A DNA stretch of 55,417 nt from a virus (taxonomy: Duplodnaviria; Caudoviricetes). The stretch lies in IMG/VR virus record IMGVR_UViG_3300025674_000052, positions 1 to 55,417 of that record, one strand, 5' to 3'. A program made the translations under genes and the position numbers. The notes under the pieces were generated by a model. The model was not told the DNA's origin, searched no databases, and was given only the letters and a program-made list of their open reading frames with translations. Below are positions 2,258 to 19,239 of the stretch, piece after piece; within the stretch, counting starts at the first letter, position 1, and each line of letters starts with the position of its first letter.

Positions 2258-4463
2258 GCCCCACCGCCTGGACCAGCTTGCGGTCCTGCCCGCTCAGGAT
2301 CGCGTTTGCAACTCCGCTGGTGATGGTCGGCAAGTTTGCCTGGATGACCTCAGCGGCGGTCTTCGGGTCCAGCGACGGCACTGTGATGTTCACGGTCACG
2401 CCTTGGCCTCCGCCTTCCATCTTGACTGGGATGTTCTTGCCGTCCGGCAGGGGGACGAACGCTTCCGCTCCTCGGCCCTCCCCGAAGATCGCCATCTGCG
2501 GGCTGTTGGCAATGCCTCCGTTCGCGTAGCCATTGATGGGCAGGCTGTTGCTCATCTGGCCCTGCATGACGCCGCCGTTGGCGAGGCCCTTGATGCTGTC
2601 TCCGAAGCCGAAGCCGCTGAAGAGGCCGCCGGCGCTGAAGCCAAGGCCGTCCCTCAGGGCTCGCAAGATGTAGAACTGCGCGATGATCGAGCCGATGGAC
2701 CGTGCCACTCCTCGCGCGAACTCCGAGAACGACGACTCGCCTGCGATAAGAGCGTCGGTCACATCCGCGAGCCCTCGCGTAATTGTTTGGAAGACCGCCT
2801 GGGTCGCTCCTCTTGCGAGGTTGAACTCCGACAGGCTCTCCCCGAACGCGGTGAACGCATCCTGGGCTCCGGCTGTAGCACTCGCGAACTTGATCTCTTG
2901 GGCTACCACGCTGGTGATCTTGTCGATGAACGCGCCTGCGAACTCTGTCGCTTTCGCAAAGGCGCCAGCGGTCTCTTCGATGCTCTTGTCGAGGGCGGTG
3001 AGGCTCTTCTTTGCCTGCGACACGGCTCGGTTCAGGGCCGCGTCAAGGGCTCCGCCGAACTCCGGCAGGCCAGGGATCAGCCTGTCGAGGTTGCTGTCCT
3101 TGATGAGCTTGCCGAAGGCTGTGCTGATGTTGTCGAACCCTTCCTTCAGCTTGGCCGTCTCGATGCCCGCCCTGGCAATCCCGATCCCGAAGTCCTTGAC
3201 GGCCTCAGCGTTCGCCTTGACGCCATCCGCCACAATCTCCAGAACGCTGCCTGTCTCCTTGAAGTTGGCGGCGAGGTTGCTCACCTCCGTCGACCCTGCC
3301 AGCGTGTTGAATGCGTTGATCAGAACGTCGAGGCCAACTGCGATGGTCCTGAAGTTCTTGGACGCCAACCGAGCGATGATCTCGAAGTTGTTCTTGGCCG
3401 TGCGGCCAAGGAACACGATGGTCTCCACGAGCACCTGGAAGGCACCGGAGAGGACGGCGACTGCGGTGCCCACTCGTTTCAGGGATCCCACCGTGCCGTC
3501 TGATCCGCCGAAGGAATCTGCGAGCTGACGCCCGGCCTTGATTAGGCTCACGACTGCGCGGATGAAGCCAGCGGTCACGAAGGATGCGGCAGTCGCGACG
3601 AATCGGTAGTCGTTCGTAACCTCGGCGGCTCCTCCTAGCTCAACGATTGCGCCCTTGATCTCCTTGATGAGGTTCTGGCCCAGTTCGATGCGGACGTCCT
3701 TTGTGGACTCTCTGAGGGCACGCAGGCTGTTGGCGTAGCTGTCGGAGGTCCTCTGGACGTCGCCTAGGTCTTTGTCGAAGGCTGCGTAGATGATCGACAG
3801 CCGGGCAACAATCTTGTCCTGCTGCGTCAGCTCCTTGGCTGTGTCAGCAAGGCCAAGCTCTAGCGCCTTCTGCTGAACAGCGGCCTCGCGGATGTCCGCG
3901 CCATACTTCAGCAGCGGCTCGCTCTGCCCAACGAGACCAGAACGGATATCGCGGAGAACGTCCTCGAACTTGACGTTCCTGAAAGACTCAACGTCCTGGC
4001 TCAGGCGAGTGATCTCGAACGAAAGGCCAGCCGCCTCTTCTGCGGAAAAGCCGAGAGGCAGGATTAGCGCCTGCAGGTCGGACGCTGCGTTCTGAAGCGT
4101 TGATTGGCTGCGGCCCAGATTGGTCGCCAGCAATTCAAGCTGCGCATTCGCCTCAGGCAGTTGCCCCGAGAACAGCTCCTCGAATTTCGATCGTGACTCT
4201 TCAACGTCACCTGCCAACTCTACGAAGCCGAAGCCGGCGGTCACGGCAGCGCGGATGCCACGGATTGCGGACTGGATGCCGACGAACGCTACCGCGACTG
4301 CTCCAAGACGCTTGGCGAGTTTGCCTGCGGCGGTGTCGACCTTGTTGAACGCCTCCTTGCCTCGCCGGCCACTCCGAGTCGCGTTCTGCTCGAACTCCTT
4401 CAGCTCCTTCGTGGCGAGGTCGCGGAGCCTCAGCTCCACTGTGATCTTGTTCTTGTCCGCCAC
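2250..4463 (-). CDS. Tail tape measure protein, 737 aa
   Basis: Long Ala/Gly-rich helical protein after the chaperones, with a typical C-terminal ANGG...GEGRGAEAFVPL motif. Confidence 0.9.
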   Translation of the reverse strand: MADKNKITVELRLRDLATKELKEFEQNATRSGRRGKEAFNKVDTAAGKLAKRLGAVAVAFVGIQSAIRGIRAAVTAGFGFVELAGDVEESRSKFEELFSGQLPEANAQLELLATNLGRSQSTLQNAASDLQALILPLGFSAEEAAGLSFEITRLSQDVESFRNVKFEDVLRDIRSGLVGQSEPLLKYGADIREAAVQQKALELGLADTAKELTQQDKIVARLSIIYAAFDKDLGDVQRTSDSYANSLRALRESTKDVRIELGQNLIKEIKGAIVELGGAAEVTNDYRFVATAASFVTAGFIRAVVSLIKAGRQLADSFGGSDGTVGSLKRVGTAVAVLSGAFQVLVETIVFLGRTAKNNFEIIARLASKNFRTIAVGLDVLINAFNTLAGSTEVSNLAANFKETGSVLEIVADGVKANAEAVKDFGIGIARAGIETAKLKEGFDNISTAFGKLIKDSNLDRLIPGLPEFGGALDAALNRAVSQAKKSLTALDKSIEETAGAFAKATEFAGAFIDKITSVVAQEIKFASATAGAQDAFTAFGESLSEFNLARGATQAVFQTITRGLADVTDALIAGESSFSEFARGVARSIGSIIAQFYILRALRDGLGFSAGGLFSGFGFGDSIKGLANGGVMQGQMSNSLPINGYANGGIANSPQMAIFGEGRGAEAFVPLPDGKNIPVKMEGGGQGVTVNITVPSLDPKTAAEVIQANLPTITSGVANAILSGQDRKLVQAVGRG

Positions 4464-4916
4464 CTAGCCCTCCTTCTGCTGCTCGCGGATCGTCTCCGCC
4501 TTCTCGCGCTCGTACACCGCTCGGAAGTCCACGAAGCTGATCGTCTGCTCCCCGAGTCCGCCCTCCGCCGGCAAGATGTGATGTTGCGCCAGCCAAGTCA
4601 TCGAGTCCAGCGCGGCGAGCACATCTGGGCTGGCCTGAGAAGCCGGGCAGCGTCTCATGTGAACGAAACCTGGGTTTTCGTCCCCGCACATCCCGCACTC
4701 TGTGCCGTATGCGGCGGCTCCGTCGCACCTGGGGCAACGGATCGCGTAGTGGGACCTCTGGCCCTCAGGGATGGGCTCGTCGCAGCCGTGGCGCGTGCGG
4801 TGCCGCCTCTTGGCCTCAGGGAGTAGGTCAAGGCAGGCGTGCGGCCCTCCACACTCCTCCGGGCAAGCCGGTAGAGTTTCCAAGAAGAGGCCACGCGCCA
4901 CGGCTCTCACTTTCCC
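4464..4916 (-). CDS. gpT-like extension of the tail assembly chaperone, reached by -1 frameshift; Cys-rich
   Basis: The -1 frame is open from the slippery site (GKVRAVARG...) to the stop at 4464, which abuts the tape measure start. Contains an ILPAEGGLGEQ motif. Confidence 0.8.
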   Translation of the reverse strand, partial: GKVRAVARGLFLETLPACPEECGGPHACLDLLPEAKRRHRTRHGCDEPIPEGQRSHYAIRCPRCDGAAAYGTECGMCGDENPGFVHMRRCPASQASPDVLAALDSMTWLAQHHILPAEGGLGEQTISFVDFRAVYEREKAETIREQQKEG

Positions 4917-10249: not shown

Positions 10250-11494
10250 TCAGAGGTTAGTGGTGTCCAGGTTCTGCGTGACGCAGAACGCGGTCGGCTG
10301 GGTGACGGCCACATCAACGTCGATGTAAGCCACGATGTGCGTCTGGCGCTTCTGAAGAGCGTCGTCCGCGACGTTGGAAGCCTCGATGCTGAGGTTGTTC
10401 CAGGTAGCGAGCACGGCCTTCGAGAAGTCCCCGAAGATCGCCTCGGTGTTAGCGCCCGAAGCAAGCTGCGTCGTGCGGCGGTAGCGGTAGCCGAGGATGA
10501 AGTCCTCAGCGCCTGCCGAGAAGATCTTGCGGCCCATCTCCAGGTGATCGGCGGTGCTGTCCTCGCTCTTGATCTGGCGAGCAGCCCGCAGGAATCGGTT
10601 GGCGACGGCGAAGCCGAGCGACTGCGCTCCGGTGAGCGCGTTGGCGTCAGCCAGCGTGTCCTCCATCGCAAGCAGATCGGTGTAGAAGTCGGCGGTGACG
10701 ACTGCGCCGGAGCCCGAGGTCGCTGAGGTGAAGTCGACGGTATTCACGCCGGCGGTGTTGTAGATGCCGATCGGGTTGCCGTCAGCGCCGGTGCCCTTCA
10801 GGATCCACTCGTTCCACTTCAGCGCAAGCTCCTCCGCCATGCGACGGCGGATGAACTGGTCAGCGCCAACGCCGAGCTGCAGGAACCTGCGGCTGGCCTT
10901 GACGTAGGACTGAGCGCAGTGGGGCTCCAGGCGGTGGTTCCCGAAGCTGAGGTCCGTCGCCGTGTTGGCGGCGTTCTCGGCCACGTTGTCGACCGCCGGG
11001 CCGCTGACCTCGCGGGGGATCTCAACGACACCAGCGCCCGTCACGGGGAGCTGCGTGATGCCAAGGTCCATCGCGATCACCTGCGGACGCAGGAGCGGGA
11101 TGATCTGGTCTTCGAAGACCTGCGTGGGCACAAGGAAGCCTCCCGCAGTGTCCGGCACGGTGCCCATGTCGTACAGCTCGCGCGACATGGCAAGCTCCAT
11201 CGGGCACTCCTTCTCGGGGTTGCCCAGGGTGAGCCCTCGGAAGACGCGACCGAAGTTGTAGGTCTCGCCCTCGTGGGTCTCCTCCATCGAGCCGGGCAGG
11301 TTGTGCTTCCTGCCTTCCTTCTCGGCGGCGTCCTGCTCCGCCTCCCAGCGGTTCATGCGTTCGGTGACGACGGACATCGCGTTCGTGACGTCCACCATGT
11401 TGGCCTTGACGGCCTCCGAGACCTCGTCTCGAAGGAGCGTGCGGAACTCCTGCCGCTTCTCGTCCCGGCCCTTCTCGATGTTTTCGTCGAGCAT
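10250..11494 (-). CDS. Major capsid protein (HK97 fold), 414 aa
   Basis: N-terminal coiled (delta-like) region, AGGFLVP, LKGTG..NPIGI and IFGDFS motifs. Confidence 0.93.
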   Translation of the reverse strand: MLDENIEKGRDEKRQEFRTLLRDEVSEAVKANMVDVTNAMSVVTERMNRWEAEQDAAEKEGRKHNLPGSMEETHEGETYNFGRVFRGLTLGNPEKECPMELAMSRELYDMGTVPDTAGGFLVPTQVFEDQIIPLLRPQVIAMDLGITQLPVTGAGVVEIPREVSGPAVDNVAENAANTATDLSFGNHRLEPHCAQSYVKASRRFLQLGVGADQFIRRRMAEELALKWNEWILKGTGADGNPIGIYNTAGVNTVDFTSATSGSGAVVTADFYTDLLAMEDTLADANALTGAQSLGFAVANRFLRAARQIKSEDSTADHLEMGRKIFSAGAEDFILGYRYRRTTQLASGANTEAIFGDFSKAVLATWNNLSIEASNVADDALQKRQTHIVAYIDVDVAVTQPTAFCVTQNLDTTNL

Positions 11495-11501
11495 ATTGGG
11501 T

Positions 11502-12842
11502 TCAGTTGTCGGGCGTGAAGCCCAGGTCTCTGGCGAGGGTGTAGAGGTCCGAAGAGCCGTCGCCAGTTGCCGGCTCGTCGGTGGAAGGTGCGGCGCTCAG
11601 CTCAGTCAGCGCCTCGTACAGGTCTGTCTGGGACTGGACCTTGATGTCGTCCAACTCCTGACGGAGCGAAGCGATCTCGGTGCGGAGGTCGTCGAGTTGC
11701 TCTCGCGCCTTGACGTCTGCGAAGGTGATCGGGTTCTGCGCGTTGCTGATCTCGGTGCTGTCCCAGCTGACAGAAGCCTCGGCCTCCGGCTCAGGCATTT
11801 CGGGGACCGTGACCGAGAGCTTCGTGGCTGTTCCACGGTCTCGGGCCAGCGTCTCGCGGAACTCTCCGAGCACGCTATCCGCGTGGATGCCAGCCTCCGC
11901 GAACTCTGCGAGCTTCTGCTCCAGCAGGTCCGTGCCGTCTGCGCTGAGCAGACGGGCGTTCTTGTCGCGCCCGAGCGGCGTGATCGAGAACTCGATCAGG
12001 TTGGCTTTCTGGATGACGGCGGAGAACGGCTTCATACCCATCGTCTCCTGCTCGTCCTCGGTGGGCGGACGCATCTTCATGACGTCGAAGCCGACGCTGC
12101 CGTTGCTCAGGAGCTTGGCCTCCACGAGGTCCTCGACGAGGCCAGCGAAGTCATAGATCGCTCGGTCTGCGAACTCAACGTCGCCGGTCAGGGCCTTGAA
12201 GGTCTTGCCGCCCCTCCGCAGCTCAACGCCCTTCTGCATCGCCGTCACCTTGCCGATCGGCGGGCGCGACTCTTGGATGTTGTGGTCGTAGAGGACGTTG
12301 CTGCCTCGGTACACGAACTCCTTCGTGTCCCAGGCGCTCGCCATCACCTTGTCCTTGAGGGGCGGGATCAGGTCGTCGCTGACCATGACGTAGCCGTAGC
12401 TCCGCCGGCCCATCTTGTCCTCGTCATCCTTCTTGCCGCGACCGTAGCTCGCCTTGCCCTTGCTGATCTTCGTCAAGGTCGAGAACTTGTGACCCACGCG
12501 AGTGTCGCTGGGCTCGCCGTCTCGGTAGACCTGGATCAGGGCTGCCGGGTCGTCCTCAGTGCCCTTGACCTTGAAGTCGGCACCGGGGACGTTGATGGTC
12601 CCGTTGCGCTCAATGCGCTCGATGCGGCCCTCGGCGCTGCCGCCGGAGCTTCGCCAGCGGACCATGTCGCCGGTCTTCAGGCCGTCTGGGGCTGCGTATG
12701 CCTCATCGGTCAGGGCGTAGCGCAGGATGCCGTCACCAGCCTCCTGGCGTACCTGCATCCAATCCTCGGCACTGACGCCTGCAAGGTCGGCATCGGTGAC
12801 GGTGCCTGCGCGGAACTTCTCGACGAGCTGGGCGTACTTCAT
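11502..12842 (-). CDS. Prohead protease / scaffold, 446 aa, with an inserted DUF2945 (Tudor-like) domain
   Basis: VLYDHN, PIGKV, GSVGF and LIEFSITPLG motifs of HK97-type proteases, plus a C-terminal coiled coil. Insert at about aa 50-126. Confidence 0.85.
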   Translation of the reverse strand: MKYAQLVEKFRAGTVTDADLAGVSAEDWMQVRQEAGDGILRYALTDEAYAAPDGLKTGDMVRWRSSGGSAEGRIERIERNGTINVPGADFKVKGTEDDPAALIQVYRDGEPSDTRVGHKFSTLTKISKGKASYGRGKKDDEDKMGRRSYGYVMVSDDLIPPLKDKVMASAWDTKEFVYRGSNVLYDHNIQESRPPIGKVTAMQKGVELRRGGKTFKALTGDVEFADRAIYDFAGLVEDLVEAKLLSNGSVGFDVMKMRPPTEDEQETMGMKPFSAVIQKANLIEFSITPLGRDKNARLLSADGTDLLEQKLAEFAEAGIHADSVLGEFRETLARDRGTATKLSVTVPEMPEPEAEASVSWDSTEISNAQNPITFADVKAREQLDDLRTEIASLRQELDDIKVQSQTDLYEALTELSAAPSTDEPATGDGSSDLYTLARDLGFTPDN

Positions 12843-15646
12843 GCGATTTCGATGTCAGGGTCGTCGAGCGCGTCTCGGCGCTCCACGGCGGTGTAGGTAC
12901 ACCGGCAGTTGATGACCTCGCTGGCACTGCCATTCGGGTCGTGCGGGTAGCGCAGGCCGTTCGGGAACAGCTCCCCCATTGTGCGGACGAGGCCGTTGGC
13001 GGAGATGTGCGTCGGGCGGGTGAACTTGTCGTTGCTGGCTCGCCACCGGATCTTCGTGACGTTGCTCGCCTCGTACTGGGTGAACTTGCCCTGGTTCTGA
13101 GCCTTGCCCGTCTCGGTCGCTGCGATAGTCGCCGCTCGCGCCTCCTTCGTGCCGAAGACTCGACGCAGCTCCTCCGTCAGCTCGGGGAGTGCCTGCTGTA
13201 CTACCTGCCGCAGGTTGCCCGGAGGGTGAAGTTTCGTGAACACGCCAGCGATGGCGTCTCGCACACGACGCTCAGTCACGCTATTCACGCCCTCGACGAG
13301 CCCGATGCGCTGAGTTGCGATGCGCTGGATGACGGTCGGGTCGGTGCTGCTCACCACGCCGGCCCCAAGCTCGCTGGCTGCGTCCTGCATCGCCTCCGCG
13401 AAGACCTCCGCAAGTCGGGCCTGCACGGCGACATCGAGCTTCTCAGCCCACTTGGGCGCGTCCAGGAGGATTGCAGCCCACGCCGTCGTCGTCAGCCCTT
13501 CGGGGTTGATGCTCTCGTCGAAGATGCTGAGCCGCCGGAAGCTGCCGTTGGCGATGCGTCGGAGCTTCGCGAGCTGGGCCTTCTCGTAGTCTTCGAGCCA
13601 CTCTAGGGCGGCGCTGTATAGTGGCTTGTCGACGTAGTCGTCGAGGCCCTCGTGGCGTGTGAGGGCAACGCCGACGCCATCATCCCACAGGTGCGCGTAT
13701 AGCTCGCCGGCGTCCCGTTCCAAGGCCACCGGCTCTCCCACTCCTTCTCCGCAGCACCCTTCGACGCCGGCGTTGCTCTCTAGGCTGTTGCGGCCCGATC
13801 CGGGGTCGTATCCCCAGTTCTTCAGCGAGATGTCGCGCTTGCTCGGGCAGTCTCCAACGGGCTTGCCCCGAGGCATCCCTCGCATCCGCGAGATGAACGA
13901 GATTGCCCTGTTGGCGGCCTTGACCTCGCGGGTGCCCCACTCGGACTTCTTTTTCCGCATCAGCGCCACGTTGCGCTTGATGACGGCTCCAGGGTTTAGC
14001 GAAGCCTTGCGGCTGCACTCGGTCTCGCCCCACGCCTCAAGGCTGCTGGCACTCATGTTGACGACCTTGCGCCACGCGGCGTACACCTCGTCGACCCTCT
14101 CCTTGTCGGCCAGAGTCGTGCGGCTGGCCTGCTCGGTGTCGTCGTCCTCGGGCTCCTGGGGCTCCGGCGCAGACTCCGGCGCAGGCTCAGGCGCGTCAAG
14201 GTCGATGAGCGTGGCGAGGCCCCACTTGCGGTCGCCTTTCTCCGGCTGCTCAACCTCGACGCCCTGCTGCTGAAGCACCTCGTTGTACGAGACACCGATG
14301 CCCTTGGCGGAGATGTTTGCAGCTCGCTCCAACTGCTCGCCCACGTCGCGCTGGAGCGCCTCAATGTGGCTACTGTTGAAGTAGGCGACGGTCCCCTGCG
14401 GGCTGCCGATCCGCAGCATCCGGGGCAGCAGATCATTCGTCAGAACGTCCGCTGTGCTGTTTGCCAGCGACAGGATCCCGTTGGGACCGGTCCACAACTC
14501 CCTGTGCGCTGTCTCGACGTTGTTGTAGGTCGCGTTGTCGTACACCCCCACACAAGGAGGCGGGACGCCGAGGCCGGCAAGGATGCTGTCCCTCAGCCAA
14601 GTCAGCAGCGTCTCGTACTGCATATCGCTCGGCTTCACCGGGTTCGGCACGAACTTGGCGCTGCTCTGCAAGAGCTTCATGCGGCGCTGATTCGGGCCGC
14701 TGAACTCGTCGTCAGCAAGCTCTTGCCGCCGCTGCATCTCCGCAGCGTCCACCTCGTGGTCGTAGATGATGAAGCCGCCAGGGTCCCCGCCGTTGCGGAC
14801 GCTGGCGTCCATCGCGCGGAACGCCTGGAAGTAGAGGTCAGTCTCCCGCTCCAGGGAGTCAACGTCGCCCAGACCTCGTGCGAAGTTGTAGGGGTCGTAG
14901 TCGCGGTAGTGGACGACCGAGCCCACGGGGAAGGCTGGGCTGACCTTGCTGCTCTGCCGGCTGTAGGAAGTCGTGTAGCGGTACGTCGCGGGCATCCCGC
15001 CGGCGTCGTACTGGATCTCGACAAGGCTGCCTCGCACAGGCACCACGCTGGCCGGCATCGCCCCGAGCAGGCGCGTCTGAGCGTTGCTCTGCACCGGGTC
15101 GCCGTTCTCGTCCATCATGAACCAGATGCACTCGCCATCGTGCTTCATGTTGATGGCGTGCGCCCTCCAGAACTGCGTCGGTGTCATGACGCGGTTCGGG
15201 TCCGCGAGCAGGTCGAGGAGCGGGTGCGAGGCCAGTGGCTCGACGCCCTGGTCCGGCTCCTGAGGGTAGAGCTGCAGCGGCATCCGCACGAAGCCCTCGC
15301 TGATCGCCTTGATGCCTGCTCGGACCCAGACGTTCTCCTCGTAGGGGCGATCCGACTCCTCGCGATCGGCTACTGGGTTCGCCAGCTTATAGAGGTCGCT
15401 GCTGCCGACGACGCTCAGAAGCTCGCTCGCGCCCTCCCGCAGCTTGCCGGTGTCGTCGAAGAACCGGCCCTCGCCCGTCTGAGCGGCCACCTTCTGTAGC
15501 AGACTCCTGCCTGCCTTGGCCTTCCAGAGAGGCTCCGCACGAGTTGCGCGGTGCCACTCAAGTCGGTCTCGGGACCTTGCGTCAGAGGACTCGTGGGCGA
15601 TCACAGCGCCTAGGAGGCCCCTCGCGCCTGCTGGAATCACGCGCAA
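12839..15646 (-). CDS. Portal protein fused to a DUF3140-like domain and a C-terminal MuF/gp7-like minor head domain (start codon uncertain)
   Basis: Portal motifs (HPLLDLLADPN, GLG, ILAGLGVPP, ATYNN). MuF C-terminus RAATIAATE...W...TRPTH...LRYPHDP...EVINCRC. Confidence 0.88.
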   Translation of the reverse strand: MRVIPAGARGLLGAVIAHESSDARSRDRLEWHRATRAEPLWKAKAGRSLLQKVAAQTGEGRFFDDTGKLREGASELLSVVGSSDLYKLANPVADREESDRPYEENVWVRAGIKAISEGFVRMPLQLYPQEPDQGVEPLASHPLLDLLADPNRVMTPTQFWRAHAINMKHDGECIWFMMDENGDPVQSNAQTRLLGAMPASVVPVRGSLVEIQYDAGGMPATYRYTTSYSRQSSKVSPAFPVGSVVHYRDYDPYNFARGLGDVDSLERETDLYFQAFRAMDASVRNGGDPGGFIIYDHEVDAAEMQRRQELADDEFSGPNQRRMKLLQSSAKFVPNPVKPSDMQYETLLTWLRDSILAGLGVPPPCVGVYDNATYNNVETAHRELWTGPNGILSLANSTADVLTNDLLPRMLRIGSPQGTVAYFNSSHIEALQRDVGEQLERAANISAKGIGVSYNEVLQQQGVEVEQPEKGDRKWGLATLIDLDAPEPAPESAPEPQEPEDDDTEQASRTTLADKERVDEVYAAWRKVVNMSASSLEAWGETECSRKASLNPGAVIKRNVALMRKKKSEWGTREVKAANRAISFISRMRGMPRGKPVGDCPSKRDISLKNWGYDPGSGRNSLESNAGVEGCCGEGVGEPVALERDAGELYAHLWDDGVGVALTRHEGLDDYVDKPLYSAALEWLEDYEKAQLAKLRRIANGSFRRLSIFDESINPEGLTTTAWAAILLDAPKWAEKLDVAVQARLAEVFAEAMQDAASELGAGVVSSTDPTVIQRIATQRIGLVEGVNSVTERRVRDAIAGVFTKLHPPGNLRQVVQQALPELTEELRRVFGTKEARAATIAATETGKAQNQGKFTQYEASNVTKIRWRASNDKFTRPTHISANGLVRTMGELFPNGLRYPHDPNGSASEVINCRCTYTAVERRDALDDPDIEIA

Positions 15647-16290: not shown

Positions 16291-16641
16291 TCAGCGCTGG
16301 GTGACGCGCTCCATCGCACTGATGGCGTCGTCCAGCTCGGAGCGGATCTCAAGGATTCGTTCCGCAGCGCGGCTGTACCCGTCACACTCAAGGATGTCCC
16401 AGATGTCGGTGAGCACCGAGCGCAGGAACACCGTGCGGGACTTGCCCTCGACGAGGTCTGCGAACTTCCAGTTGACGTTGATGCCGCGAGCGCGGCGGTA
16501 AACCTCAACGGCGGGGACGTTTTCGCAGGAGGCCGTGTCGAAGATCGACTCCGCGCGGAGGTAGGTCAGCGCAGTACGCGCCATCGCGTTCCAGCAGAAG
16601 GAGGGGATCCGAATCGAGGGGCCGGGGTGGTTGGCAGTCAT
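16291..16641 (-). CDS. Hypothetical early protein, 116 aa (MTANHPG...)
   Basis: ATG downstream of promoter cassette P1 and followed by a terminator. Confidence 0.7.
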   Translation of the reverse strand: MTANHPGPSIRIPSFCWNAMARTALTYLRAESIFDTASCENVPAVEVYRRARGINVNWKFADLVEGKSRTVFLRSVLTDIWDILECDGYSRAAERILEIRSELDDAISAMERVTQR

Positions 16642-16730
16642 TGCTTCGTAGGGGTTGCTGGCGAGGGCTGATTCCCTCGACACACTTACTTTCGGCTCTT
16701 CGGCTCGTTTCCGCAAGCCCTTTTTCTGAT
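16642..16730 (-). promoter_or_regulatory. Promoter-hairpin cassette P1
   Basis: A-tract, TTGCGG (16716-16711), N17, GAAAGT, then hairpin CGAGGG-AATCAG-CCCTCG and CAGCAAC. Confidence 0.8.
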
Positions 16731-16746
16731 TCTGCCTGGGAAATCC

Positions 16747-17472: not shown

Positions 17473-17688
17473 TCAGGCACCGTGCGCGGCGGCTTGCTCT
17501 TCGGTGATGGCTCCTGCGGCAAGAGCGGCTTGCGCGAGGATTGCGCGGACGTGTGCAGCGCTTCCGGCTTGGCTCCAGTTCGCTCCGTAGCAACCGTCGC
17601 GGCTGTCGAGGATGGCTTGGGCAAGTTGCTCGATCGCGAAGTTGTGTTGGGCGAGTGCGGCGTCGGCGGTCTTAGTGGTGTCGGTCAT
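17473..17688 (-). CDS. Hypothetical early protein, 71 aa (MTDTTKT...)
   Basis: ATG at the same distance from cassette P2 as in P1 and P4. Confidence 0.7.
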   Translation of the reverse strand: MTDTTKTADAALAQHNFAIEQLAQAILDSRDGCYGANWSQAGSAAHVRAILAQAALAAGAITEEQAAAHGA

Positions 17689-17777
17689 CGGTTCGTAGGG
17701 GTTGCTGGCGAGGGCTGATTCCCTCGACACACCTACCTTCGGCTCTTCGGCTCGTTTCCGCAAGGTCTTTTTCGGAT
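17689..17777 (-). promoter_or_regulatory. Promoter-hairpin cassette P2, near-identical to P1
   Basis: TTGCGG (17763), N17, GAAGGT, then CGAGGGAATCAGCCCTCG and CCAGCAACCCCTACGAA. Confidence 0.8.
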
Positions 17778-17805
17778 TCTTTTGGGAGCGGGCCTCCAGG
17801 GCACG

Positions 17806-18058: not shown

Positions 18059-18160
18059 CGCGTTCTTGGGTTCGAGTTGTCAGGGTCGTCGAGGGCTCGT
18101 TCCCCCGACCTCCTAACCTTCGGCTTTGCTGTCCGTTTCCGCAAGTCCCTTTTCCGATTT
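18059..18160 (-). promoter_or_regulatory. Promoter-hairpin cassette P3
   Basis: TTGCGG (18144-18139), N17, GAAGGT, then variant hairpin TCGGGGG-AACGAG-CCCTCGA. Confidence 0.75.
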
Positions 18161-18346
18161 CTCGTCTACGTGCCTCCATGTCTTCCGAGTCACGACGTAA
18201 TGAATCGCCACATGGCTGACGCCGTACTTCTGCCCGAGGGCTGCTAGGGTCGCGCCCTGGGCGGCCTGCTTGCGGATCGCGCGGACACTCTGGGCCGTCA
18301 GGCGGGCCATGCCGTTCTTCTCGCCTTTGCGGTTCTCAAGTTTCAT
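18113..18346 (-). CDS. Small HTH DNA-binding protein, 77 aa, resembling the C-terminal domain of phage HNH endonucleases
   Basis: GEKNGMARLT...IR...LGQKYGVS...TWRHV pattern. ATGA coupling with the MTase stop. Confidence 0.65.
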   Translation of the reverse strand: MKLENRKGEKNGMARLTAQSVRAIRKQAAQGATLAALGQKYGVSHVAIHYVVTRKTWRHVDEKSEKGLAETDSKAEG

Positions 18347-19239
18347 GCGGTCACCTCAATGTCCATGCGAGCTCTCACGAACGCCTCCGCTTGCGGAGCG
18401 CAGAGGGCGTTGCCGTAGGCGCGCAGGCGTCCCACTCGGGCGGCAATCCCATCAGCCAACGGGAAAGAGCCGGGTTCAATCGGACGCCATCGGGGACCGC
18501 TCGGGTCGTTACAGTAGACCCACTCCGCACAATCCCAGAACGTGCTACTCCCGCAGGTCCCGCCAGCCGAGACTTCTTCACTAGGTGCTCTAGGTCCAGA
18601 GCCTGTCCTGTGTCCTTGTGATCTCGCGCTGTCGGGGTCGGCCACGCAGCTCGACTTGCGGGAACCGCTAGGCGCGACTTGGACTGCTGGGTTTCTGGAT
18701 CGAAGTTGGTCCAGCTGTCCTTGTGATCTCGTGAACACGGCGTCGGCCACGAAATACAGTCGCTGCCGCCTGTGCGGAGCCCCGACGCCCGCAGCGCAGG
18801 TATCAAGGCCGCTGACGGTGTAGCCCTCTCGGTCCATGTCAGATTGAACAATGTCGAACCAGCCGAGGCCGTCCTTGCTTGAAACCTGCTCGCCAAAGAT
18901 CGTGCGCGGGCGTCGTGCTTGAGCGAGCCAAAGAACGGCAGGCCATGCGTGCCGCTCGTCAGCAAGCCCTGCTCCCTTGCCTGCGCTGCTGAAAGGCTGG
19001 CACGGACAGGAGGCGGTCCAGACAGGTCGGTCGTCGGGCCAGCCTGCGGATCGCAGGGCGTGGCTCCAGACTCCGATCCCTGCGAAGAAGTGGCATTGTG
19101 TGTATCCATCAAGTTCCTCAGGTGCGATGTCCCAGATTGAACGCTCGTCCACGACGCCGGGGGCGATGTTCCCCGCGTCGATCAGGTTCCGCAGCCACTG
19201 CGCTGCGAACGGGTCGATTTCGTTGTAAAAGGCGGCCAT
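18343..19239 (-). CDS. DNA (cytosine-5) methyltransferase, alpha-type chain, 298 aa
   Basis: Motif I FFAGIG, IV SCPCQPFS, VI GEQV, VIII PHRRQRLYFVA and X RLRAYGNAL. No evident motif IX. Confidence 0.9.
   Translation of the reverse strand: MAAFYNEIDPFAAQWLRNLIDAGNIAPGVVDERSIWDIAPEELDGYTQCHFFAGIGVWSHALRSAGWPDDRPVWTASCPCQPFSSAGKGAGLADERHAWPAVLWLAQARRPRTIFGEQVSSKDGLGWFDIVQSDMDREGYTVSGLDTCAAGVGAPHRRQRLYFVADAVFTRSQGQLDQLRSRNPAVQVAPSGSRKSSCVADPDSARSQGHRTGSGPRAPSEEVSAGGTCGSSTFWDCAEWVYCNDPSGPRWRPIEPGSFPLADGIAARVGRLRAYGNALCAPQAEAFVRARMDIEVTA
18375..18965 (-). CDS. Nested alternative-frame C5-MTase beta-type subunit (start uncertain; frame open to 19112)
   Basis: Open frame inside the MTase gene with two WPTP..RDHKD repeats and the motif IX-like RLNPALSRWLMGLPPEW. 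Candidate TTG start at 18965. Confidence 0.75.
   Translation of the reverse strand: MLTSGTHGLPFFGSLKHDARARSLASRFQARTASAGSTLFNLTWTERATPSAALIPALRASGLRTGGSDCISWPTPCSRDHKDSWTNFDPETQQSKSRLAVPASRAAWPTPTARDHKDTGQALDLEHLVKKSRLAGPAGVARSGIVRSGSTVTTRAVPDGVRLNPALSRWLMGLPPEWDACAPTATPSALRKRRRS

Follow-up and report, generated by a model that had tools for sequence, protein, structure and literature searches.

The window analysed here, an IMG/VR virus record of 55,417 bases (IMGVR_UViG_3300025674_000052; completeness estimate 98%), carries three consecutive minus-strand head genes, which encode a portal-MuF fusion, a putative prohead protease-scaffold protein and an HK97-type major capsid protein. The first two genes are adjacent and overlapping, and each contains a small extra domain: a DUF3140-like helical domain in the portal-MuF protein and, ∼1.1 kb away, an Hva1/DUF2945-type Tudor domain in the protease-scaffold protein. 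We propose that the two domains are probably jointly acting cargo of the capsid lumen, a phage-borne version of a cellular two-gene Tudor-DUF3140 unit. The proposal is built on the homology of the inserts to both families, a cellular operon, tandem fusions of the two domains, their association at head loci and the lumen-facing position of their carriers, all of which were observed.

A first-pass annotation, made from the letters of the DNA and their translations, had placed an extra domain between the Phage_portal and Phage_Mu_F parts of the portal-MuF open reading frame (ORF) and likened it to DUF3140. The domain lies at that position (Table 1), and the translations match the two stretches that were quoted. 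With Pfam DUF3140 (PF11338), the insert scored 16.6 bits in the whole protein, 21.7 bits when isolated and 20.3 bits in a third scan, and it stays under the curated cut-off of 25 bits (24.1 bits for Hva1_TUDOR, PF11160). Relatives with 56–66% identity exceed the PF11338 cut-off (P0164, 27.8 bits; P0169, 31.6; P0171, 29.2; P0170, 26.1; P0163, 25.5; P0186, 31.7). Alignment of the phage profile (A2) to the cellular DUF3140 profile (A6) with hhalign gave a full-length match with a probability of 98.9% (E 1.1e-17, 95 columns), and PF11338 was present in 30 of the 30 ESM Atlas clusters nearest to the insert. The profile–profile match and the relatives over the cut-off support the assignment, and the insert appears to be a divergent, phage-borne branch of DUF3140. 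We call it DUF3140-like because the window's own domain falls below the cut-off while those relatives pass.

The same insert was found in 65 related proteins, mostly portal-MuF fusions. In a 16-sequence alignment its mean identity is 65% across unrelated carriers, with 23 invariant columns, and it remains 55–70% identical between proteins that are otherwise unrelated. An N-terminal motif, NM(S/T)..EL..W, and a C-terminal motif, SL.NWG..P, vary little or not at all among the 16 phage sequences and also occur in three cellular ones; this motif list is our own reading of alignments A2 and A6. AlphaFold modelled the domain as five helices and a short hairpin (predicted local distance difference test score, pLDDT, 95.1). 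The region that precedes the insert varies in length and content among relatives. The net charge is +5 to +10 in 12 of the 16 phage domains, and the median of cellular DUF3140 is −2. The basic phage domains would fit DNA contact, which is only a hint.

The fold gave no clue to function. Foldseek gave no match in the PDB at E ≤ 0.001, the best of 48,161 chains compared with VIA-align reached Z 5.0, which is ordinary for helical bundles, and the BFVD matches were the prohead protease of HSTV-2 (E 4e-6) and a weak likeness to DUF6321 phage proteins only. A PDB sequence search returned nothing meaningful for the insert. The DUF6321 likeness is limited to the last 37–47 residues of the insert in BFVD; residues 63–99 of the isolated domain (P0001; window ∼13814–13924) weakly resemble that family (Pfam E 0.1; 38–42% identity over 37 residues in BFVD). 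A C-terminal motif may be common to the DUF3140-like and DUF6321 phage families.

The second insert had been described as a DUF2945 (Tudor)-like domain within the protease. The family assignment holds, with Hva1_TUDOR scores above the cut-off (29.6 bits in the whole protein, 34.1 isolated and 33.5 in a six-frame scan of the genome). The coordinates also stand, but the domain lies outside the protease fold, between an N-terminal segment of ∼50 residues and the core. It is a clean 75-residue indel, present in 5 and absent in 13 of 18 aligned relatives, and is 61.7% identical to the domain of Roseobacter phage CRP-811 and 53.6% to that of Limnohabitans phage DC31. The full-length model places strands at residues 60–65, 68–73, 102–107 and 110–117 of the Tudor part, at a pLDDT of only 37–61.

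Linkage of the two domains in bacteria and phages

The first-pass annotation had suggested, subject to checking, that DUF3140 and DUF2945 occur as neighbours or fusions in bacteria. Among 80 bacterial genome loci fetched with the cellular DUF3140 alignment, from at least 560 stretches, a Hva1_TUDOR gene ends 0–128 nucleotides (nt) upstream of DUF3140 on the same strand in 35; the genes overlap in 2 further loci, and in one Leptolyngbya contig the two domains are fused in one ORF. The suggestion is therefore correct. Adjacency was found in 31 of 50 loci of Actinomycetota, 2/3 of Cyanobacteriota, 1/8 of Pseudomonadota, 0/18 of Bacteroidota and the single locus of unassigned phylum. Pfam confirmed all eight ORFs checked (six upstream and two downstream genes), at 37.5–80 bits for the Tudor and 132–138 bits for DUF3140. 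No other conserved neighbour of the bacterial pair was seen, the remaining gene clusters occurring in at most 13 of the 80 loci and being lineage-specific. Only 3 of 301 Bacteroidota genomes have DUF3140; the two strong cases also have Hva1_TUDOR, on other contigs, and this sample is too small to weigh.

In the Hymenobacter loci (L257–L274) the DUF3140 gene has no adjacent Tudor. By eye, its conserved neighbours there encode a putative DnaJ/CbpA-type J-protein, a small MerR-like partner and an Hsp20-type protein.

Both domains also occur in single chains. A profile search of 1.84 billion representatives (clusters at 50% identity) detected the phage-type domain in 880 clusters (E ≤ 0.001), and the best 150 were analysed. 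A Tudor stands in the same chain in 20 of these 150 representatives, in both orders, often only 6–25 residues away, in proteins of 250–1372 amino acids (aa). Five S78 proteases have the arrangement protease-DUF3140-Tudor in a single chain. No Tudor was found in five metagenome-assembled genomes (MAGs) that hold the phage-type DUF3140-like domain.

Of the best 150 representatives, 89 were scanned with Pfam for the nature of the carrier, a number set solely by a limit on residues. Beside the domain stood portal families (Phage_portal in 14, Portal_Mu in 7, Phage_portal_3 in 5, P23-45 portal in 1), other head families (Phage_Mu_F in 12, S78_2 in 8, S78 in 6, and ClpP, SDH protease and Phage_capsid in 1 each) and further families (InPase, DUF3721 and DUF5824 in 4 each, DUF5872 in 2). 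Tudor domains are carried by S78 proteases, protease-capsid fusions and the C-termini of portal proteins. Carriers of the pair or of either half include four or more portal families, MuF, four types of protease and the N-termini of capsid proteins, and almost all recognised carriers are parts that face the procapsid interior. The portal-MuF protein of the window itself joins portal and MuF to an extra non-structural domain within the head module, and so has the make-up of a cargo-bearing fusion. The DUF3140-like domain is also found as a free gene between the portal and MuF genes, as in L068, where the order is TerL, portal, DUF3140-like, MuF, S78 protease and capsid.

At another such locus (L058), the stretch from portal to MuF holds, besides the free DUF3140-like gene, two more small genes that flank it (1523–1888 and 2271–2657). 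The first of these two to be named is a DUF5856 gene (60.7 bits) with the PHROGs label 'starvation-inducible transcriptional regulator' (phrog_858), wording that we take to resemble a name used for Dps; the other (128 aa) weakly matches a head maturation protease PHROG. A contig filed under a Paceibacterota MAG (L103, 1–3102) consists of a single ORF, 1034 aa or longer, that runs past both contig ends and chains DUF5824, Tudor (by our own hidden Markov model), DUF3140-like and DUF3721 in the style of polyvalent proteins.

Association at phage head loci was analysed in two samples. Both domains are rare among 2.9 million IMG/VR contigs: the DUF3140-like domain is encoded in 449 stretches and the Tudor in at least 584. 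Of the 449 stretches, 80 loci were kept, and a Tudor is also present in 19 of them, in at least three layouts. Ten have a portal-insert-MuF gene and, behind it, a protease gene with a Tudor, whose place within the protein differs from protease to protease; two have protease-DUF3140-Tudor; and seven encode a protein that we denote Tudor-DUF3140-X. The last (L049–L052, L054, L059 and L060, on contigs of 35–139 kb; for example L051, 9749–11017) has 422 aa, with a Tudor, a DUF3140-like domain and then ∼230 residues that match nothing.

The second sample was blind to the trait, with 80 loci fetched by the portal part alone, of which 67 have a portal-MuF ORF and 56 at least 1500 nt downstream of it. 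Both domains were present in 11 of the 56 loci, the DUF3140-like insert alone in 11, the Tudor alone in 1 and neither in 33 (odds ratio 33, Fisher p 4e-5, uncorrected for relatedness), so that a Tudor stands in the protease at 11 of 22 loci with the portal insert and at 1 of 34 without it. Clustering at 90% identity left 8, 8, 1 and 30 loci, respectively. On a tree of the MuF part the portal insert changes 13 times and the Tudor 7 times, and the two are found together at six or more places. In one relative (L008) the inserts are 86 and 88% identical to those of the window and the rest of the two proteins 83–86%, and two others (L017 and L012) have neither domain.

The MuF part of L246 (1–1932) is near-identical to that of two loci with both domains (L210 and L211); the L246 portal-MuF protein lacks the DUF3140-like insert, yet the protease there keeps the Tudor, which looks like a very recent loss or gain.

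Proposed role of the pair and rival explanations

In the role that we favour, the cellular unit, an Hva1-type Tudor gene followed by a DUF3140 gene, would have been split, with one half placed on each of two adjacent head-assembly proteins. Because it is located between the portal and MuF parts, the DUF3140-like domain would be expected at portal copy number, conventionally twelve. The Tudor stands ahead of the putative protease core, and both insert positions face the procapsid interior. Loading would occur through covalent membership in proteins that assemble inside the shell. The prohead protease would probably free the domains at flexible acidic or Gly-rich linkers, and the freed domains would stay with the packed DNA or exit with it at infection. 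We infer that the two domains act jointly, that the protease releases them and that the mature virion contains them; the strong conservation of the DUF3140-like domain on unrelated carriers points to a specific activity.

A more far-reaching version is doubtful. The Hva1-type Tudor and DUF3140 would here form an unrecognised system of two components whose target is condensed or dormant DNA or the stress state of the cell, kept as an operon by bacteria of dry, irradiated or nutrient-poor habitats. A basic version would repeatedly have been loaded into capsids by many phages and haloarchaeal viruses, either as protection for the tightly packed DNA or to affect the host as the DNA enters. If this were true, the virion versions would open two widespread families that lack an assigned function to direct experiment.

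Several results weigh against joint action of the pair as lumenal cargo. In 80 loci fetched with the Tudor (the 80 most similar of at least 584) no DUF3140-like domain was found; these loci are mostly of one kind, protease-capsid fusions like that of CRP-811. Scans of whole genomes detected only the Tudor in CRP-811 and DC31, and only the DUF3140-like domain in HRTV-2. A free DUF3140-like gene (124–143 codons) with no Tudor nearby accounts for 34 of the 80 domain-fetched loci. In L007, which is 86–89% identical to the phage of the window, the portal insert is kept at 95% identity and the protease is Tudor-less. The Tudor-DUF3140-X family lies by PhoH and a metallophosphoesterase on large phage contigs, with no recognisable head genes beside it. 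An independent-pairs test on the MuF tree gave a median p of 0.25–0.5, with too few pairs for significance; 2–3 pairs were concordant and usually none was discordant, since one direction of discordance never occurred and the opposite one did so rarely. Net charges are opposite in just 9 of 29 cellular Tudor-DUF3140 pairs, so charge complementarity is weak and was dropped as a hint of binding. Prediction of a complex of the two domains (alignments A2 and A4, run without controls; score 0.24, mark 0.32) was uninformative either way.

These data show that the pairing is real yet facultative. The first-pass annotation had tied its proposal to the inserts matching the two families and keeping company in phage head genes. 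Both do match named families, and their co-occurrence in head genes is non-random, but each domain is also found alone and the pairing is not obligate. Half of what the annotation had named as refuting its proposal is thus observed, and its interpretation is partly supported.

Three rival explanations were weighed. The portal DUF3140-like domain could be an assembly tether that binds the protease Tudor, and so recruits or positions the protease-scaffold protein at the portal vertex during procapsid nucleation, with no role after maturation. The two domains do sit on proteins that must co-assemble and that are encoded by adjacent, overlapping genes, and 11 of the 12 Tudor-positive portal-MuF loci have the portal insert. 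A tether would be pointless, however, where both domains share one chain, and the operon exists in bacteria that have no capsid. Half of the loci with the portal insert lack the Tudor, as does L007, and the DUF3140-like domain is often a free small gene. We consider a tether quite unlikely; fusions within one chain, free-standing genes and the operon of bacteria make docking of the protease on the portal the less likely main function. That the inserts are structural padding, which merely stabilises or spaces the carriers (for example as a longer portal-MuF tether) and has no activity of its own, is in our judgement very unlikely. Low-complexity linkers do flank the inserts, and close relatives without them look like intact proteins, but identity of 55–70% across unrelated carriers, invariant columns, a confident compact model and homologues that exist as free cellular proteins weigh against this reading.

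A further reading, which we hold to be unlikely, takes the inserts as two unrelated accessory modules, each among the many small domains that phages add to head proteins facing the lumen. They would meet, by chance or shared descent, at insertion hot-spots, namely the portal-MuF junction and the N-terminal region of the protease. Each domain is found alone in many phages, the tree-corrected association test was not significant, and the junction takes up other material, such as the two small genes of L058 and a further module of ∼80 aa directly after the portal part in L007 (∼2136–2381) and L012 (∼4275–4679), with the conserved stretch ...LNGAQIASLLSVVEQVAAGVLPKDTAIQIIVASFPFD...; because of this module we regard the portal-MuF junction as a hot-spot for small inserts. 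A conserved cellular operon and fusion are hard to obtain by chance, and so are 20 independent-looking same-chain fusions, in both orders, of two domains that are each rare. Since three independent kinds of linkage join them, pure coincidence is unlikely, and we retain joint action of the two domains as lumenal cargo as the probable explanation.

The head module of the window

The features of the module are given in Table 1. The portal-MuF protein matches the portal protein phrog_2662 (5e-74) over residues 97–925, and its stop overlaps the start of the protease-scaffold gene by 4 nt.

Table 1. Features of the head module and positions in the window
Feature	Position	Strand	Basis
Portal-MuF fusion gene, 935 aa	12839..15646	-	Single ORF with Pfam Phage_portal (1.4e-40) and Phage_Mu_F (2.8e-13)
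Portal domain, residues 108-457	14276..15325	-	Pfam PF04860, 139.9 bits
Acidic Pro/Glu-rich linker preceding the insert, ~residues 480-512	14111..14209	-	Sequence
DUF3140-like helical domain (P0001), residues 513-615, 103 residues	13802..14110	-	Pfam, hhalign, ESM Atlas, AlphaFold
MuF part (SPP1 gp7-like head morphogenesis), ~residues 700-935	12842..13546	-	PF04233, 51 to 53 bits; phrog_2468, 6.9e-32
Pfam core of the MuF part, residues 822-918	12893-13183	-	
Putative prohead protease-scaffold gene (P0004), 446 aa	11502..12842	-	ORF; position; fold
Conserved N-terminal helical segment ahead of the Tudor, residues 1-49	12696..12842	-	Kept in 18/18 relatives
Hva1/DUF2945-type Tudor domain (P0002), residues 50-126	12465..12695	-	PF11160; Pfam core 12516-12671
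Putative protease core, ~residues 148-295	11958..12401	-	Invariant His187 (12282-12284) and Ser249 (12096-12098); fold match
C-terminal long helix, possibly scaffold-like, residues 374-415	11598..11723	-	DSSP helix, pLDDT ~80
HK97-type major capsid protein gene, next downstream of protease-scaffold	10250..11494	-	Pfam Phage_capsid, 8e-35

The 446-aa protein has no match to Pfam Peptidase_S78 or S78_2 at E up to 10, with either the whole protein or its C-terminal 320 residues. In PHROGs it matches only phrog_11321, an entry without function, and a PDB sequence search found nothing. The model has low overall confidence (pLDDT 57.2; 57–85 in the core blocks and ∼80 in N-terminal helices 3–12 and 25–35). 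Compared with 48,161 chains by VIA-align, residues 33–290 of this model matched T4 gp21 (5jbl_A) at Z 8.2 (root mean square deviation 3.9, 139 of 165 residues aligned), with the runner-up at Z 5.1. Foldseek returned only weak rows for the proteases of Epstein-Barr virus, human cytomegalovirus and varicella-zoster virus (E 0.2–0.4). All 18 relatives share His187 and Ser249, and a weak hhalign alignment to S78 (probability 23%, E 8.7e-4) pairs LYDHN with LVDH and NGSVGF with HSIGF, the His and Ser motifs. Because of the gp21 fold match, the invariant residues, the S78 alignment and the place between the portal and capsid genes we label the protein a protease; 'scaffold' is added because of the long C-terminal helix, whose position and form suggest such a role. 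Protease-scaffold is the best label, and is moderately supported.

Upstream of the head module, a repeat of 70–102 nt (77–93% identical) is present in three copies (16632–16733, 17679–17780 and 18090–18159), located at the 5′ ends of minus-strand ORFs; the first 24 residues of two ORFs (16291–16716 and 17473–17763) are nearly alike. The repeat may be a repeated promoter or leader element. A 298-aa ORF (18343–19239, minus strand) contains FAGIG and PCQPFS, which may be the motifs typical of DNA cytosine-5 methyltransferases; a 245-aa ORF overlaps it in a different frame.

Comparison with known systems

Phages are known to carry cargo as additional domains of their portal, MuF and protease proteins, and this general theme is not new. 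New is that DUF3140 and the bacterial Hva1/DUF2945 Tudor are tied together by an operon in bacteria, by fusion within single chains and by joint occurrence in head modules; that the pair or either half is placed in the capsid interior across phages of bacteria and haloarchaeal viruses; and that the phage copies are 55–70% identical on unrelated carriers. A full-text literature search found DUF3140 or PF11338 in no paper, and the titles and abstracts of work naming DUF2945, PF11160 or Hva1 contained nothing on phages or on pairing with DUF3140. Cultured carriers exist (HRTV-2, HSTV-2, CRP-811 and DC31), which makes the question bench-testable.

The window Tudor belongs to the same Pfam family, PF11160, as Hva1 and the bacterial DUF2945 proteins, which have a small Tudor-like barrel. 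Passages of PMC5008624 describe Hva1 of Cryptococcus neoformans as a free Tudor-like protein that indirect evidence ties to metabolism and possibly to NADPH, and passages of PMC6324024 cover the renaming of DUF2945 as Hva1_TUDOR in Pfam; no link of Hva1 to viruses or to DUF3140 was found in those passages of the two papers. Gp10, the 'prohead protease' of the haloarchaeal viruses HSTV-2, HRTV-2, HRTV-7, HRTV-11, HCTV-6 and HCTV-15, also contains the DUF3140-like domain, at 33% identity across 99% of the query, and the BFVD model of the HSTV-2 protein matches the domain with a template modelling score of 0.91. There the domain is borne by a head-maturation protein that adjoins the portal. In contrast to the window, it is C-terminal in the protease instead of in the portal protein, the hosts are archaea, and a scan of the complete genome of HRTV-2 found no Tudor.

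The nearest precedent in concept is the set of phage 'polyvalent proteins', for which passages of Iyer, Burroughs, Anand, de Souza and Aravind (2017; PMC5512222) describe effector domains that are joined to portal or MuF and for which packing into the virion is predicted. The likeness lies in extra non-structural domains joined to portal or MuF in the head module, and InPase, one of the domains in that paper, adjoins the DUF3140-like domain in 4 of the 89 scanned representatives. Its main text uses neither the word Tudor nor DUF, and its supplements may list the domain under another name; T4 internal proteins are mentioned in its introduction. Unlike polyvalent proteins, the cargo here would consist of a pair of small domains of non-enzymatic appearance that are divided between two adjacent proteins and can be traced to an operon of cells.

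MuF also reportedly serves as the vehicle of polymorphic toxins of temperate phages, said by Jamet et al. in 2017 to carry a C-terminal toxin with an immunity gene. An added domain on MuF is common to both systems; here it is N-terminal to MuF and without the features of a toxin, and an immunity gene was not seen.

The T4 internal proteins IPI–III and Alt carry a capsid-targeting sequence, are processed by gp21 and are ejected with the DNA. In the window no capsid-targeting sequence came to light, though no search was aimed at one. The pair of the window would resemble them as small proteins loaded into the procapsid lumen and freed by a prohead protease, the predicted protease here having a gp21 fold. 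Unlike the T4 proteins, loading would here be achieved by covalent fusion to the assembly proteins themselves.

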